Positions 1 through 49,280 are shown, numbered from the stretch's first letter. The stretch: DNA of 49,567 nucleotides from Chiloscyllium plagiosum (GCF_004010195.1 NC_057751.1:3906208-3955774), one strand, 5' to 3'. Notes: generated by a model from the letters alone, not told the origin. Made by a program: numbers and translations.

Positions 1-403
1 CAACTAGCCACGAAACGACACGACCAGCTATCCTTAGTAGCCACACACGCAGATGACAAGCAACATGACTGGGACAACACTACCATTATAGGGCAAGCCA
101 AACAGAGAACAGCCAGGGAATTCCTAGAGGCATGGCACTCATCCACAGACTCTATCAACAAACACATCGACCTGGACCCAATATACCGGCTACTACAGCG
201 GACAGCTGGAACTGACAACCGGAAGCGGCAGAGACAGGTCACTTTCAATGCCGGAGGAAACCTCACAGAAGCGCTTCACAGGAGGCTCCCAAGCACTGAG
301 GATGTCACCTCGACAGGGGACGAAATGTTTGCAAGACAAATTCCCAGCTTGGCGAACAGAACCACAACAACAAGCACCCGAGCTACAAATCTTCTCCCAA
401 ACT
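1..403 (+). mobile_element. Poseidon-like Penelope-like element (PLE), 3' end: C-terminal GIY-YIG region plus 3' UTR/pseudo-LTR; runs off the window start
   Basis: Encodes ...IIGQAKQRTAREFLEAWHSSTDSINKHIDLDPIY..., nearly identical to the GIY-YIG ORF at 11656-12072. Ends in the same ...ctacaaatcttctc.caaact tail as 12657. Confidence 0.9.
293..332 (+). ncRNA. Minimal type I hammerhead ribozyme motif (Poseidon family)
   Basis: gca-CTGAGGA-t-gtcacct-cgac-aggggac-GAAA-tgtt-tgc: conserved core boxes, stem II hairpin, gca/tgc stem I. Stem III carries a CpG-type change. Confidence 0.75.
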
Positions 404-8431: not shown

Positions 8432-9171
8432 TGTTATGAAGGCGTAAGGGGTACTGTACCTTTAAGAGAGTTAAAAGCTAGCAGAAGTACCTGACACAGC
8501 ACCAAGTGTTCTGAACAAGGTAACAATGTAACATGTGGTCGAACAGTTAGATTAGCTGGATTGCCTGGAGACAAAAAAAAATCAAATTCAGCCAATCAGT
8601 TTAAATTATGCCCCAAAATGCCAAATTCCAATCAGGTTTGAATTTAGTATTTTGACAATATTAACACCAATAAAACAATCCAATTCATTGGGGTATAAAA
8701 CAGAAACAAAATTGAACAGTTGGAGGAGAACTGCCCAAAGACCAACAGATGTAGGCTGCTCGTCAGAACTCTCTGAGAGATACCTGTCGAGAGAAGGAGT
8801 TTGCACACAGAAAAAAACATTGACACTGACCTGAAGAGCAAATCTACAGAAGAAGGTACAAAGAGAAGATTCAACAGCTGGCTGATTTTGAAACGTGAAT
8901 CTTTCAGTAAGTCTTAGTCAGGGGGGTTTGATTGGATTAGTATTGTAGAGGGGAAGGTCAAAGATAAGTTAGAGAAAGGAGTTATAAATAGTTGTGAATT
9001 AATTATTCTCTGTTAGACTTTAAAAAATAAAATTGTTAATTTTTACTTTAAATAGTGACCTTTGGAAATAGTTCCTTGCCTCTCGAATTTTAACTGATTA
9101 CAGCAATGGGTTAAATCATTTCTGTGTTGCAGGTTTAAATTATCTGGGGGGGGTTACCCCATCTCAGAACA
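8432..9171 (+). mobile_element. Solo LTR
   Basis: TGTTATGA...TCAGAACA termini and gact TSD (8428-8431 / 9172-9175). CCAAT boxes at 8592, 8628, 8667 and 8680; TATAAAA at 8694; AATAAA at ~9027. Homologous along its length to 11374-13099. Confidence 0.85.
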
Positions 9172-9880: not shown

Positions 9881-10689
9881 TATCTTAGCTATGATGAGTG
9901 TTGATAGATATGATAGATAGAATGATAGATACAGTTATTATTACTAATTTACTGTTCCAATATAGTAAAATCCCATAAACACACCCTTGCCAAAAAGGCA
10001 AATTCAGATAACAGATTGTCTCACATGCAGTTCTCCAATCCAAGAGGCAAAACACATCGTAAGACAACTTTGACAGAGCAAGTGCAGCAGCCAGAAGAAA
10101 TTCATTGCCTTCCAACTTGCTGAACAACTGCTGAAAGCTAACGTAATTCAGGATCTCCAAGAGTTGACCACACCCACTCAGGCTGCTTCTATTGTTCCAA
10201 CTTTCAAAAAAACCCAAGGCCTAACAAATTGTTTATCTTATTATAGACTGCTTGTTATCTGTTCCCCCAATCTCTGTCTGAAACACATCTCTTCAAGCTG
10301 CAGCATTGATTTCTTTCTGAACATGTGACAATGTCTTGACTAAATAATACGTAGGATTTTCTAAACCACAAACAATACTTCAAAGCAGTTCTGTCCTTAT
10401 CTGCATACTTGAAAGGAATGATGGATACAATGAAATTTTCATGATGGAGATCATCCTCTTCTTTTCTTTCAAAGGAGCCTGTTGCCAACTCAGAGCAAGG
10501 TTAATCTCACTTAGGTATTTTTACAGATAGCTCTGTTTCTTTGTCCTCTCGTCAACTTAATTTCTCCTTGCAGCTTTGCAATGATGAGAAAATGCTGATC
10601 TCTATTCAGCCTCCCTGAGGATCATCACGCCAATAGCCTTCAAATAAACGTCAAGTCACCATCGCCTGACCATACCAACAAGCTGCTAT

Positions 10690-10852
10690 TTCATTAGACA
10701 GACACACACTTGGTGGCAGTTCAAGCTGAAAAATCACTACACCACATGAGAGGGGAGGAGTTGGGAAGGAGGAGCATAGTAACCTCAGCTGATGCAGAGA
10801 TTTAACCCATGCTGTTGGCATCAACTAGTCATCCAGCCAATTGAGCTAAACC
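10690..10852 (-). mobile_element. tRNA-derived SINE fragment
   Basis: Minus strand begins ggtttagctcaattggctgga...tgggttaaatc (A/B-box-like). Confidence 0.5.
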
Positions 10853-11636
10853 ATCTTTCAAATAGGCAGAGCAGGTAGAGCAATTGCACAAAGTAATCAG
10901 GAAAACTAATACATTGTTCTAATGAATAATGAGAGGAATTTAATACATAAGTGAAGATGTGTTTCGATTATACAAGGCATTGGTAAAAGCCTTATTAGAG
11001 TACAATGCACAGCAAGTGTTACCTTCCTTAAGAAAGTAAATGTATTAGAAACAGCTCAGAGAAGGATTAGCAGACCAATATCTGGAGTGAAGAGAAATTG
11101 AATAGGGTCAGCTTGTATCTGTTGAAGTTTAAAAGAATAAGAGCTGACTTAACTGAAATGTAAGAAATTCTGAGAGTTCTTGACAGAGTAGATGTGGAGA
11201 GGATATTTCCTCATATGGTAGGATCTAGAATTAGGTTATTGCTCATAATCAGGGATCACCCATTTAAAACAAAAACAATTGATTTTCTCTTTTAAGTTCA
11301 TGAGTCTTAGGAGCTTTTTCCTGAAAAGATGGGTGAAACAGGCTCCTTGAGTATTCGTCAGGCAAAGACAGATTGTTATGAAGATGTAGGTATATCTTTA
11401 AGAGAATTAAAAGCAGCAGAACTACCGGACAACAGCACCAAGTGTTCTCAATAAGGTGACAATGTTACACTGGGTCAAACTACTCGATTAGTTTGTTACT
11501 TGGAGACAAAAACAAATTTGAATTCAGCCAATCAGTTTAAATTATACTCGAAACATAACAAACTCCAATCAAGTTTGAATTGAGTATACTGACAATCTTA
11601 AAAGCCAATGACACAATCCGATACTTTGCAGTATAA

Positions 11637-12657
11637 CAGACGTTTTGTCCCCTGTCTAGGTGACATCCTCAGTGCTTGGGAGCCTCCTGTGAAGCGCTTC
11701 TGTGATGTTTCCTCCGGCATTTATAGTGGCCTGTCTCTGCCGCTTCCGGTTGTCAGTTCCAGCTGTCCGCTGTAGTAACCGGTATATTGGGTCCAGGTCG
11801 ATGTGTTTGTTGATCGAGTCTGTGGATGAGTGCCATGCCTCCAGGAATTCCCTGGCTGTTCTCTGTTTGGCTTGCCCTATAATGGTAGTGTTGTCCCAAT
11901 CGAATTCATGTTGCTTGTCATCTGCGTGTGTGGCTAAGGATAGCTGGTCGTGTCGTTTCATGGCTAGTTGGTGTTCATGAATGCGGATCATTAGCTGTCT
12001 TCCTGTTTGTCCTATGTAGTGTTTTATGCAGTCCTTGCACGGGATTTTGTACACTACATTGGTTTTGCTCATGCTGGGTATCAGGTCCTTCGTTCTGGTG
12101 AGTTGTTGTCTGAGAGTGGCTGTTGGTTTGTGTGCTGTTATGAGTCCTCGTGGTCGCAGTAGTCTGGCTGTCAGTTCGGATGTATGGTAGTGTGGCTAAT
12201 CCTTTGGGTTGCGGCATGTCCTCGTTCTGTTGGACAACCATGGCATCCATGAACACCAACTAGCCACGAAACGACACAAACAGCTATCCTTAGTAGCCAC
12301 ACACGCAGATGACAAGCAACATGAATTCGACTAGGACAACACTACTATTATAGGACAAGCCAATCAGAGAACAGCCAGGGAATTCCTAGAGGCGTGGCAT
12401 TCATCCACAGATTCAATCAATAAGCACATCGACCTGGACCCAATATATCGGCAACTGCAATGGACGGCTGGAACTGACAACCGGAAGCAGCAGATACAAA
12501 TCACTATAAATGCCGGAGGAAACATCACAGAAGCGCTTCACAGGAGGCTCCCAAGCACTGAGGATGTCACCTAGACAGGGGACGAAACATCTCTACGCAA
12601 ATTCCCAGCTCGGCAAACAACAACGAGCACCCGAGCTACAAATCTTCTCACAAACTC
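11637..12657. mobile_element. Poseidon-like PLE insertion with inverted arms (minus arm 11637-~12235, plus arm ~12243-12657)
   Basis: Minus ORF 11656-12072 is a GIY-YIG endonuclease (NVVYKIPCKDC..HYIGQTGR.L..RIHEH). The plus arm repeats the 3' part inverted. Flanking duplication tgcagtataa at 11627-11636 and 12658-12667. Confidence 0.9.
12555..12594 (+). ncRNA. Minimal hammerhead ribozyme motif (Poseidon family)
   Basis: gca-CTGAGGA-t-gtcacct-agac-aggggac-GAAAC-atc. A mirror copy lies on the minus strand at ~11637-11675, with GAAA mutated. Confidence 0.75.
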
Positions 12658-14880
12658 TGCAGTATAAGACCAGGGAAAATCAAACAGTTGGGAGGACAAC
12701 TGCCAAGGCCCAGCGCGTAAACAGATGCTTGAAAACAGCTCTCTCTTAAAAGTCCCTTTTCGATCAGTAACCTGCAATGCAGTATTTCCTAACAAGGAGA
12801 AAAGACGACACAGGAAGATCCAAAGACAAGAACCTATTGCTGCCTGGTTTTGAGATAAGAAATGTTGTTTTGTAAATTTTAATTGGGAGTTTTATCGGAC
12901 TAGTATTATAGAAGAGAAGCTAAAAGATAGGTTAGAGAAAGAAATTGTAAATAGTGGTCAGTTAATTATTCTCTGTTGTACTTTAAGAAATAAAGTTGTT
13001 AATTTTTACTTTAAATCGTTCTTGGCCACTTGATTTTTAACTACACAGGATAAATCCTTGCTTTAACTTGAGCAGGAGGGTTTACCCTGTGTCATAACAC
13101 AGATAGATTCTTAATAAGCAAGGGGTAGGCAGGAATGTGGTTAAGAGGTATCAGATCAGCCCGGATCTTATTGAATGACGGAGCAGGCTCAAGTGGATGA
13201 AGAGCCTCCTCCTGCTCTTTGCTTGTATGTTTGACTGGAAATATCTGAGCTTTGAAGACACACTTACTCTCCAGTAATTGTTCAGTGATTGTTATAATAC
13301 GCCATAAGCTATCAAATAATGGAAGGGGGTTACACTAAACTGAAAACATCAAAGCACAAAATTAAGGCACTGGAATTCCTGGCATCCAATTTGTAAATGG
13401 CAAGAGCAAGAAAACATGTCTTAGCTATTCATTTCTCCACCAGGAGAAATTTTATTCAATTCAAACTGCATGGAGATGGGAAAGCAGGTCAGCCTCCAAC
13501 TTTTGAAGAAAATTCATCTCTCAATGAACTAATTCAACCAATATATAATATGATACTGTACAGGTTGCTTGGATGGATCAAGACCTAAGTCACAGGGGAC
13601 AGGTTGGACTAAGTTGGAGCTTAATCTGCAAGGAAACTATAATTGAATTTGGAGCGCAAAATTCAGTGAGTGACGTTTCTATCATTAAGGTTAACAAGTT
13701 TAAGTATTTCCAGGCCCCTCAGACTGAACCATGTCATGGTGCAGCCATTTCATTGTGCACTTTCTCCTTTCAAGAGAAAGCACTCTCACCTCCCTGTGCT
13801 CAGTTAAAGATAAGATCGCAGAAAGTAATTGCTTAAGGGTCACTTGAAAAGATTGATTTTCCTCTGACACAGAATTTCAATATTACTGCTTTGCTCAATG
13901 ACATTTTCTGAAGCAAACAGTCCAATGGAGTATCCACTTTTTGAAAAAAAAATGTGTGCTCTGGCCCACCAAATCTTCTCATTTGCATTCCAGAACTTTG
14001 CATGTTACCCTGCAAAGAACAGTGGTTTATTTTCAAATGTAAGTATTTGTTTCAAAAAATATTATCTTAGTCATACATGACTAATAGCCTGGAGAAATCA
14101 TCCTTTTCTTGTGTTCATTCAAGGTATGTGGCTATCTCTGGCTGCACCTGCATTTATTGCCCATCAAATAATTCACCTTGAAAAGTTTGTGGTGATCTGC
14201 CCTCCTGAACTGTTGCAGTTCATTAGGTACACCTACAGAAGCACTCAAAACTCAAGGAGGCTAGGATATAGGGAGGTGACTTGGGGGCAAAACATTGGTT
14301 GCAGAACACAAGGGAGGTGAGAGAGAAAGGTGGTTGCTCCAGTTCGAAAGTGAGATGGAGGCTGCAAAGGCAGAGAAGAGAGATGGATGGTGCAAAAGAA
14401 AGAGAGAACAGTTTCAGATCTTTCAACAAAGGAACACTCAGTTAAGTTGGAGTTAGGAAATCTTGAAATCACAAAGGTAATGAACTCATTCCAAATGAAT
14501 GTGCTATTGACATCTTAAAGTTGCGCAAGTTCAGGAATTAGTCTTTGGGGAAGAACTTAGTGGATGCAATTGTTATGAACACCACACCAAGTGTCAAATT
14601 TAAATTTGAAATGCAGTAAATAGGGAAGTGAATGTCTCATTAAAATGATTCAGCTCTGTATTTGTGATGGAAACACATTAGCTGTGACCTTACCAGTCCA
14701 TGGAAGATACGTCTAAGGTCATAGTTTTATACGTGCAGAAATACGTGCAGCTTTTTTTCAAAAATTCACAAACTTATGTCTGTTGTCTTGTGCCATTTTA
14801 AAAATTGTAGTATCAAGAAAATTATTCCTTTCCTTTATGTGTTATAGTTTTAAGCTCAATGGAGTTGATAATTATTGAGG

Positions 14881-34584: not shown

Positions 34585-34785
34585 AAAAAGCAATAGCTGG
34601 ATAAACTCAGCAGATCTAGCAGCATCTGTCAAAAGAAAGCAGAGTCAACGTTTTCGGTCCACTGACCCTTCTTCTGTTCTCAAGTAGCATTGCTGGACTG
34701 AAATACTGACTCTGCTTTCTTTCCACAGATGCTGTCAGACATGCTGAGTTTCTCCAGGTATTTCTGTTTTTGTGTCAAATTCCAT
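34585..34785. repeat. Head-to-head palindromic pair of family B hammerhead elements
   Basis: Left arm aaactcagcagatctagcagcatctg...aaagcagagtcaacgttttcggtcc is inverted relative to right arm ggactgaaatactgactctgctttc...cagatgctgtcagacatgctgagttt. Confidence 0.75.
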
Positions 34786-47949: not shown

Positions 47950-49280
47950 CTGGATGTAGGTTTGCTCACTGAGCTGGAGGGTTTGTTTTCAGACATACCA
48001 TCAGTGAGCCTCCAGATGAAGCACTGGTGGTATGGCCCGCTTTCTGTTTATGTGTTTAGGTTTCCATGGGTTGGGCATGCCAATTCCTGTGGTGATGTCA
48101 TTTCCTGATCTTTTTCCCAGGGGATGGTAAATAGGATCCAAGTCATTGTTGAAGTTCCAAGTTCCAGTTGAAATGCCATGCTTCTAGAAATTCTCATGCA
48201 TGTCACTGTTTGGCTTGTCCAGTCGAAGTGGTGACCTTCCTCATCTGTAAGGATACTAGTGAGAGCAGGTGATGTCTTTTTATGGCCAGTTGATGTTCAT
48301 GATGTTCATGCATTCTGGTAGCTAGTTTTCTGCCTGTTTGTCCAATATAGTGTTTGTTACAGTTCTTGCAAGGTACTTTGCAAATGACATTAGTTGTGCT
48401 AGTTGTCTGTATAAGGTCTGTATAAGCTGCTGTTTTAGTGTGTTGGTGGGTTTGTGGGCTACCATGATACCAAGAGGTCTGAGTAGTCTTTTCCGAGATG
48501 TCTTTGCTGTGTGGGAGAGTGGCTAGGGTTTGTCTGCTTATTTGGGCTTGTTGCTGAGAAATCAGCGGACTGTGTTCACTGGGGACCCGTTCTTTCCAAA
48601 TACATGATATAGATGATTTTCCTCTGCTCTGCATAGTTCTTCTGTGCTGCAGTGTGTGGTGGCTCGTTGAAATAATGTTGAAGTTCCCCATTGGCTGCTC
48701 GGTCCACTGCGAGATCTAAGAATGGCAGTTTATTGTTGTTTTCCTCCTCTTCCGTGAATTTAATGCCAGTAAGGGTATTATTGATGGTGTTGAAGGTTTT
48801 ATCTAATTTGTTTCATTTAGTGATGACAAAGGTGTGATTCACATAGCGGACCCAGTTTGGGTTGGCAGTGCTGTTTGTTTGAGTCTCTGCATTACTGCCT
48901 CTGCTAAGAGCCCTGATAGCGGAAATCTCATGTGTGTTCCTTTGGTTTGTCTGTAGGTTTTGATGTTGAAGGTGAAGTGGCTGGTAAGGCATAAGTCCAG
49001 TAACTTGACAATGTTGTCCTTGCTGAAGAAGATGGTGGCGTTTCGGATATGGGTCTTTGGTTCTTCTAATAATGTAGTCAGTGTTTCCTTGGGCAGGTTG
49101 ATGTTGATGGATGTGAACAGGGCTGTTACGTCAAAGGAGACTATTATTTCATCCTCTTCTATCTTGGCGTCTTTGATGGTCTTCAGGAATTCTCTGGTGG
49201 CGTGGATGGAGCGGCAGGATAATTCTACGAAGTGTTTTAGTCTTTGGTTTACCTTCTTAGCCAATGTGTAAGTTGGTGTT
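47950..49280 (-). mobile_element. Decayed Poseidon-like PLE (RT plus GIY-YIG), second subfamily
   Basis: VSFDVTALFTSI, YRQTKG..M..PLSG.LAE.VM, NVICKVPCKNCNKHYIGQTGRKLATRMHEH. Hammerhead stem II is deleted near 47995. Confidence 0.92.

Follow-up and report, generated by a model that had tools for sequence, protein, structure and literature searches.

Inverted, head-to-head insertions of endonuclease-bearing (EN+) Penelope-like elements (PLEs), with one target-site duplication (TSD) of 9-10 bp and a tail on one side only, have been described for Pen2a_Av and Pen2 in Adineta vaga (PMC3846280), and as a general architecture (Craig et al. 2021, PMC8557442). Self-priming has been favoured as their source (PMC3846280), and the way in which PLEs form them has been described as unresolved (PMC8557442). 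Here, we describe an insertion of this kind, of Penelope/Poseidon type at motif level, within 49,567 nucleotides of DNA from the shark Chiloscyllium plagiosum (GCF_004010195.1 NC_057751.1:3906208-3955774; the whole of this stretch is ‘the window’, and positions are counted from its first letter). We tentatively propose that it arose in one integration event, by double priming on two different RNA molecules. Statements about published systems, here and below, refer to parts of the cited texts rather than to their whole.

For the Poseidon element PAc of Anolis carolinensis, Frangieh et al. (2024) describe a protein that in vitro cleaves both strands and extends them, and for which a dimer is predicted (PMC11167929); published work on minimal hammerheads (PMC4209133) is the other basis on which a ribozyme dimer could be proposed. 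For L1, opposite-orientation insertions made from two transcripts are known from experiment (PMC11702581) and from genomes (PMC13174262).

Like Pen2a_Av and Pen2, the shark insertion has a 5'-truncated inverted copy lying by the 5' end of its partner, a single TSD in the 9-10-bp class and a tail on one side. Unlike in the Adineta vaga PLEs, however, the two arms extend far into the coding region of the endonuclease, the arm that has no tail stops ~40 nt before the second end point of the family, what look like alleles of different lineages are found in the arms, and the junction holds filler with no clear palindrome. With PAc, the shark element has in common an ATG at the start of hammerhead stem II and two 3' end points that define the tail, to which may be added an A+T-rich target with both strands cut and extended (PMC11167929). 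The usual ends, counted from the ATG of the pseudo-long terminal repeat (pLTR), lie at ~+72 and ~+102 in the shark family versus +111-118 in PAc; the shark minus arm ends at +30, near the ribozyme cut, a point at which the cited part of the PAc work, which used one RNA species, has no RNA ends.

The likeness to L1 twin priming and two-RNA insertions lies in two reverse transcription events begun from opposite ends of a staggered break, a joint made by microhomology or filler, and one TSD (PMC11702581, PMC13174262, bioRxiv 2024.08.27.596794). That two different RNAs can serve as templates for L1 (PMC11702581) lowers the surprise of what we propose. Arms overlap by 1-10 bp in classic one-RNA L1 twin priming, whereas those of the shark insertion overlap by 350 bp; further unlike L1, the protein is of the GIY-YIG/telomerase-like PLE kind, there is no poly(A), and both templates would be the element's own relatives. 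In the literature searched, of which coverage was partial, we found no report of PLE insertions with two templates or with lineage-discordant arms. The architecture of the locus is a known one, and what it adds is a mechanistic detail that is plausibly new.

Target site and arm geometry

The insert occupies 11637-12657 (1,021 bp) and consists of two 5'-truncated Penelope/Poseidon arms placed head to head. The features on which the argument draws are these:

11627..11636, plus strand: left TSD copy, 10 bp, one of two copies in the window; the homologous site is single in the paralogous host repeat
11637..12232, minus strand: minus arm, 596 bp, a 5'-truncated copy with the end of the linker between reverse transcriptase (RT) and endonuclease (EN), the GIY-YIG endonuclease and a hammerhead motif
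11985..12232, minus strand: 248-bp part of the minus arm that is absent from the plus arm, the spacer of the inverted repeat
12233..12242, no strand: junction filler, 10 bp, between the two 5' ends, bounded by loose ends at 12232 and 12243
12243..12657, plus strand: plus arm, 415 bp, 5'-truncated, with the C-terminal endonuclease region, a hammerhead motif and a tail
12346..12501, plus strand: 156-bp stretch in which 22 of the 31 arm-to-arm substitutions fall, every candidate lineage allele among them
12558..12592, plus strand: minimal hammerhead-like motif from a pattern scan (CTGAGGA, stem II, GAAA), with an ATG (12564) at the start of stem II
12593..12657, plus strand: 65-bp 3' part found in the plus arm only, including an optional tail of ~30-35 bp; two family end points
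12658..12667, plus strand: right TSD copy, whose first 2 nt (TG) are also the family's next letters
11374..13099, plus strand: host, an older solo repeat resembling a long terminal repeat (LTR), ~695 bp without the insert, TGTTATGA...TCATAACA with CAGAT flanks, split by the insertion
8432..9171, plus strand: uninterrupted paralogue of the host repeat, 77-80% identical and matching both flanks; a proxy empty site
1..403, plus strand: another copy of this family, interrupted by the edge of the window, with the same family 3' end as the plus arm

An earlier note on this DNA, made from the sequence alone, had placed two inverted arms within a single TSD-like duplication, and this is borne out: TGCAGTATAA matches the window only at 11627 and 12658 (and nowhere on the opposite strand), adjoining both ends of the insert, and in the paralogue at 8432-9171 the left and right flanks are continuous across a single homologue of the 10-mer. 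The TSD is genuine, a duplication with no large deletion at the target, the paralogue being a proxy and not an orthologous empty site. An assembly join of two loci is argued against by the flanks, which merge seamlessly into one host repeat. Raw reads (organism A, run X19, likeness 80, 1,934 Mb) were searched over 11985-13200, a range with one copy of the shared arm and no left flank, and the rows listed were mostly family reads. No record spanning the junction or the whole insert was among the read and contig rows listed, which speaks for an artefact; nor was an orthologous empty site seen in the reads over this range, the left flank lying outside it. Organisms B and C had shares of words of 0.28-0.35 in eight runs and of 0.18 in one, values that are uninformative as to the presence of the insert.

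Regarding the host, two LTR-like solo repeats of its type lie 3 kb apart and both start with TGTTATGA, that at 11374-13099 having a 5-bp duplication (CAGAT) and that at 8432-9171 a 4-bp one (GACT). The Poseidon insert sits at a TATA-like motif of the host repeat.

The inner boundaries of the arms were set by the contig loose ends at 12232 and 12243. Two 5-mers of the filler between them recur close by in the arms (GGACA, inverted, at 12217; CCATG at 12247), with no match of 6 or more letters, such that templating by the arms is no more than suggestive and end-joining is compatible with what is seen; no second TSD is present at this arm-arm junction. At its outer end, the plus arm stops at the commonest 3' end of the family in the raw reads (12656, with 4,627 loose ends), the other family end lying ~30 nt earlier (~12627-12630, with 1,578). 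The minus arm stops 30 nt from the pLTR ATG, 2 nt beyond the inferred ribozyme cut site, and no end of this type was seen among the 24 of 3,886 loose-end rows listed. The reverse-complemented TSD and the family sequence at this 3' end (11637-11645) have CTGCA in common.

Neither arm lies wholly inside the other, 248 bp being confined to the minus arm and 65 bp to the plus arm. Self-priming yields a copy no part of which extends beyond its template, so that neither arm can be a foldback of the other, and we reject a simple foldback or self-primed copy on this geometry; the earlier note had come to the same view from the divergence of the arms, which is the less firm ground. Rather, the arrangement is that of twin priming, with arms in opposite orientation, both 3' ends at the TSD and an end-joined 5' junction. 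Because both outer ends are element 3' ends that abut the TSD, each arm reads as first-strand complementary DNA (cDNA) made from one 3' overhang, and we regard priming from both nicks or ends as very probable. Self-comparison of the window gave no other long head-to-head pair to serve as a control (three inverted pairs within 1.5 kb, at E<1e-3).

The unusual end of the minus arm also bears on two other accounts of the locus. The first is double priming on one multi-unit RNA, a read-through transcript of a tandem or partial-tandem locus with two unlike units, the nicks being primed on the downstream and the upstream unit. The +30 end resembles an internal second priming, to which the CTGCA match adds a coincidence of modest odds; PLEs occur in tandem, with transcription presumed to yield multi-copy RNA, and mixed arrays could be built by the Anolis protein, since it nicks the pLTR of its own element (PMC11167929). 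This would, however, require an expressed array in which neighbouring units differ at ~10 lineage sites, and we consider it unlikely. The second is a composite source, an existing head-to-head locus that was read through by transcription and copied into a single cDNA starting at the plus arm's 3' end, with +30 the point at which the cDNA stopped. Such a copy would account for the non-standard end without a second priming, and antisense or composite templates have been proposed for PLEs before (PMC3846280), but it merely shifts the question to the source locus and predicts more copies of the same junction, of which there were none among the 15 of 349 joints and 24 of 3,886 loose ends listed (a weak test). 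We consider this very unlikely.

Candidate lineage alleles and private decay in the arms

The part shared by the arms (11638-11984 on the minus strand versus 12243-12592 on the plus strand) measures 350 bp and is 90.6% identical, in agreement with the length given in the earlier note, and all eight of the motifs quoted there are present as written. In a three-way comparison with the copy at 1-403, over 321 ungapped columns, the odd letter falls in the plus arm at 21 sites, in the minus arm at 6 and in the copy at 4, with all three different at one; the excess in the plus arm over the minus arm has p=0.006. Polarising by the majority of three went wrong at two sites or more (12453, at which the family letter is C, and 12501, at which the common letter is that of the minus arm and the copy sides with the plus arm), so that these counts, and the synonymous count below, are approximate.

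Around half of the plus-arm differences are private decay. Ten of the 21 plus-only letters are rare in the family, the other letter being present in 88.6-98.3% of raw reads, and these include the nonsense change and all three CpG decays; some of the letters quoted in the earlier note as alternative alleles are of this kind (12461, a CpG decay, with the plus-arm letter in at most 11% of family reads, and 12466, with at most 2%). At 12400 the other letter makes up 68.9% of raw reads and the plus-arm letter up to 31%. The remaining 10 sites are not among the 40 of 234 variant rows listed, the ranking of which is unstated.

The remaining differences look, from the comparisons we could make, like alleles of a lineage. 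The plus-only changes are synonymous at 12 of 21 sites, versus 6.7 expected with the same changes placed at random (p=0.012), and at the four sites that could be tested on protein, out of the 10 that are not listed, all four show the plus-arm state in other shark copies: the antisense exon P0042 has it at 12346, 12457 and 12495, P0021, P0026 and P0001 also at 12495, and P0026 at 12500. At the rare sites, these proteins have the common residue, except at the CpG site 12489, where P0001, P0041 and P0042 have the plus state. The minus-arm motif RQAT is found in five of nine sense-frame shark proteins, which differ nearby (TART for TAGT). Taking the synonymous excess and the recurrence in other shark copies together, we suggest that the templates probably differed already at the time of integration; to this extent, the claim that the plus arm carries different alleles stands.

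The same two results largely refute decay alone as the source of the divergence. It might be held that identical arms drifted apart through uneven decay or through RNA or DNA editing, or that two loci were joined in assembly; the 10 rare letters fit uneven decay, but the plus-only changes (7 G>A, 6 C>T, 4 A>G and 4 transversions) do not resemble editing, and on this ground we reject the ADAR or APOBEC type. With the seamless flanks set against misassembly, this group of explanations appears barely tenable. Private substitutions in the shared part number ~11 in the plus arm versus ~8 in the minus arm by our own tally (p=0.65), and, not being different, are compatible with one date for both arms. 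They bear also on the idea of two successive insertions, in which one element was already in place and a second inserted precisely at its 5' junction. Arms of different lineages would follow from this, as would the slightly greater private change of the plus arm (~11 vs 8), but the second insertion would need to have struck the same base without a duplication of its own, of which the junction has none, and the difference in age is not significant; we hold this to be highly improbable.

The earlier note had also matched the minus arm to the copy at 1-403. The two are close, but do not clearly belong to the same lineage: besides siding with the plus arm at 12501, the copy departs from the two arms alike at four positions beside the ribozyme motif and at the base that follows the motif. 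The lineages of the family seem to form a ladder, on which the arms occupy different rungs and the copy a place in between. A T is common to the minus arm (11777) and the copy (191), which lie 12 kb apart, at the position equivalent to 12453. The letter is C in 97% of family reads, and the residue is Pro or Ser in the shark proteins examined; the shared T may reflect chance, a small sub-lineage or local exchange.

Several observations weigh against a plain reading with two RNAs, and some of them in favour of later patching. Between-arm substitutions number 6 in 12243-12345, 22 in 12346-12501 and 2 in 12502-12592 (the 31st being an edge effect of a 1-nt deletion), for which a scan gives p=0.026, with the scan window picked after viewing the data and the permutation allowing for its position, not its width. 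The arms are identical over an 82-bp run (12502-12583 versus 11647-11728, p=0.006), and no lineage difference was identified outside 12346-12501. Immediately past the ribozyme motif the arms share a C; the letter is T in the copy at 1-403, in P0042 and in the most uniform read class. As to the alleles themselves, the ranking of the variant rows being unstated, the absence of a site from those listed only hints at a common allele, and a probable private CpG decay at 12589 is likewise absent; P0042 had to be without a stop at 12457 in order to be annotated, which biases that site; and the comparison proteins come from named sharks, possibly of species other than that of the window. The clustering of differences and the shared C together keep conversion or a template switch in play. 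That C is also common in the reads (1,280 loose ends at 12592 versus 3,150 at 12588). Within the identical run, which may reflect conversion between the arms, two CpG sites are kept in both.

Patching could have taken either of two forms: arms alike at first, into which ectopic gene conversion, or an RT switch out and back, put ~156 bp of another lineage; or arms unlike at first, of which conversion homogenised the outer 82 bp. Donors are plentiful, with a family depth of ~10,000-13,700 in the raw reads. Against this, P0001 has the plus-arm combination (a hydrophobic residue at the 12495 codon, followed by a TINAG-type segment), which suggests, on the strength of one protein, that an unbroken lineage of the plus type exists and so favours discordance of whole arms; the identical run, for its part, spans the ribozyme motif, where lineages may differ little, and the width of the scan window was set after viewing the data. 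On balance, we think patching improbable.

Identity and abundance of the element

Assignment to Penelope/Poseidon is supported at motif level, not by a tree. The minus arm has a 174-amino acid frame (11659-12180) that is 93% identical to an RT-bearing protein of Chiloscyllium punctatum, P0018, and 54% identical to P0022, a protein that passes Pfam for GIY-YIG; Pfam gave no family on the arm's own frame. In the close relatives P0018 and P0041 the arm region lies C-terminal to RVT_1, with GIY-YIG downstream of the RT, as in EN+ PLEs, and the RT has been lost from the insert copy through truncation. The Penelope/Poseidon clade is marked by an RT-EN linker with no CX2-5CxxC zinc-finger and by CCHH-type residues inside the endonuclease (PMC8557442). 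Consistent with this, the P0041 linker has one cysteine in the 76 residues before the endonuclease, without the zinc-finger of Neptune and Nematis, and the minus arm has a CxxC at residues 48/51 with downstream histidines, as candidate CCHH-type ligands. The hammerhead motif (CTGAGGA-stem-GAAA) recurs at 296 in the copy at 1-403, and its layout agrees with that of described pLTRs and hammerheads (PMC11167929, PMC4209133). Rfam at the gathering score gave no hits in the window, and three ribozyme-region stretches folded no better than shuffles (z -0.8 to 0.5). An optional tail is indicated by the two family ends ~30 nt apart, with the tail on the plus arm alone, an inverted 5'-truncated partner and the 10-bp TSD.

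Truncation and decay mark both arms, as in a dead insertion. The minus arm has a frameshifting deletion of ~11 nt near 12177 (its size inferred from P0018/P0041) and a 3-nt deletion, and in the plus arm the codon at 12332-12334 is a nonsense one; the hammerhead motif has decayed just after GAAA in the plus arm (12589), and its minus-arm counterpart is changed at the base before AAA (11646). The family itself is very abundant: its depth over the shared arm was read at 12354-12558 and, for a genome that we take to be of a few Gb, points to tens of thousands of copies. No family DNA was confirmed by protein among 247 pattern matches in metagenome contigs, none was found there by a 24-nt motif, and none was found in prokaryote genome contigs.

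Other observations concern relatives of the element and further sequences, in the window and beyond. Chiloscyllium punctatum isoforms of MAP3K7, NT5DC1 and D-serine dehydratase (P0021, P0026 and P0042) end in Poseidon-family exons, two sense and one antisense, which may be gene-model artefacts or exonisation. Hammerhead-core motifs (CTGA.GA...GAAA) at 506, 1866, 14972, 19871, 29993, 47237 and 25132 belong to short repeats from one or more further Penelope-like families; that at ~483-633 directly follows the copy at 1-403. At 48172-48489 there is an old relative of the same endonuclease region, 66-78% identical and in both orientations, possibly another decayed inverted insertion, and the 185 bp at 34585-34769, from a short repeat family, form an imperfect palindrome (75% self-complementary), with no TSD by a quick scan. 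The decayed stretch at ~700-1500 is, by eye, a candidate for the pol region of an LTR-retrotransposon.

A model for integration and what it may mean

We start from what is observed, namely the TSD, the opposite orientation, the non-nested arm ends, the filler and the mix of shared and private alleles. In our model, the endonuclease would cut the target with a 10-nt stagger to give two 3' overhangs, the nick positions being those that the TSD and the proxy empty site imply. A cDNA would then be primed by the bottom-strand 3' end at the usual start of the family, giving the plus arm of 415 bp, and a second by the top-strand 3' end at the unusual site beside the ribozyme cut, giving the minus arm of 596 bp. 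Both cDNAs would stop early and be joined head to head via the 10-bp filler, their templates having been transcribed from different lineages within a single, very abundant Poseidon family; after insertion, each arm would have gained 2-3% of private decay.

Of the earlier claim that the insertion is a chimera of two templates, we retain a single event and arms with alleles of different lineages. Its suggestion of two RNAs is one reading among several, since a tandem transcript, or later conversion or a switch over 12346-12501, fits equally well. The results fit two RNA molecules and two units of one RNA alike, and it is with this in mind that we prefer the former only tentatively.

We also speculate that Poseidon acts as a dimeric particle with two RNAs, one for each nicked strand, such that head-to-head inserts would routinely be ‘heterozygous’, with arms from co-expressed lineages. 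The second template may be an RNA cleaved or paired through its ribozyme, as suggested by the minus arm, which stops 2 nt beyond the inferred cut. A ribonucleoprotein (RNP) or ribozyme dimer at the shark locus would rest by analogy on the published Anolis and minimal-hammerhead work, and we put the idea forward as a doubtful one.

As a single decayed locus with three live explanations, the insertion is a small clue to how PLEs insert, and a pointer rather than a result. Concordance of arm lineages would nevertheless be a cheap genome-wide test in a family of this copy number and, if the reading of a dimer with two RNAs is true, the discordance of arms over thousands of shark loci would count the RNAs that take part in each integration event.

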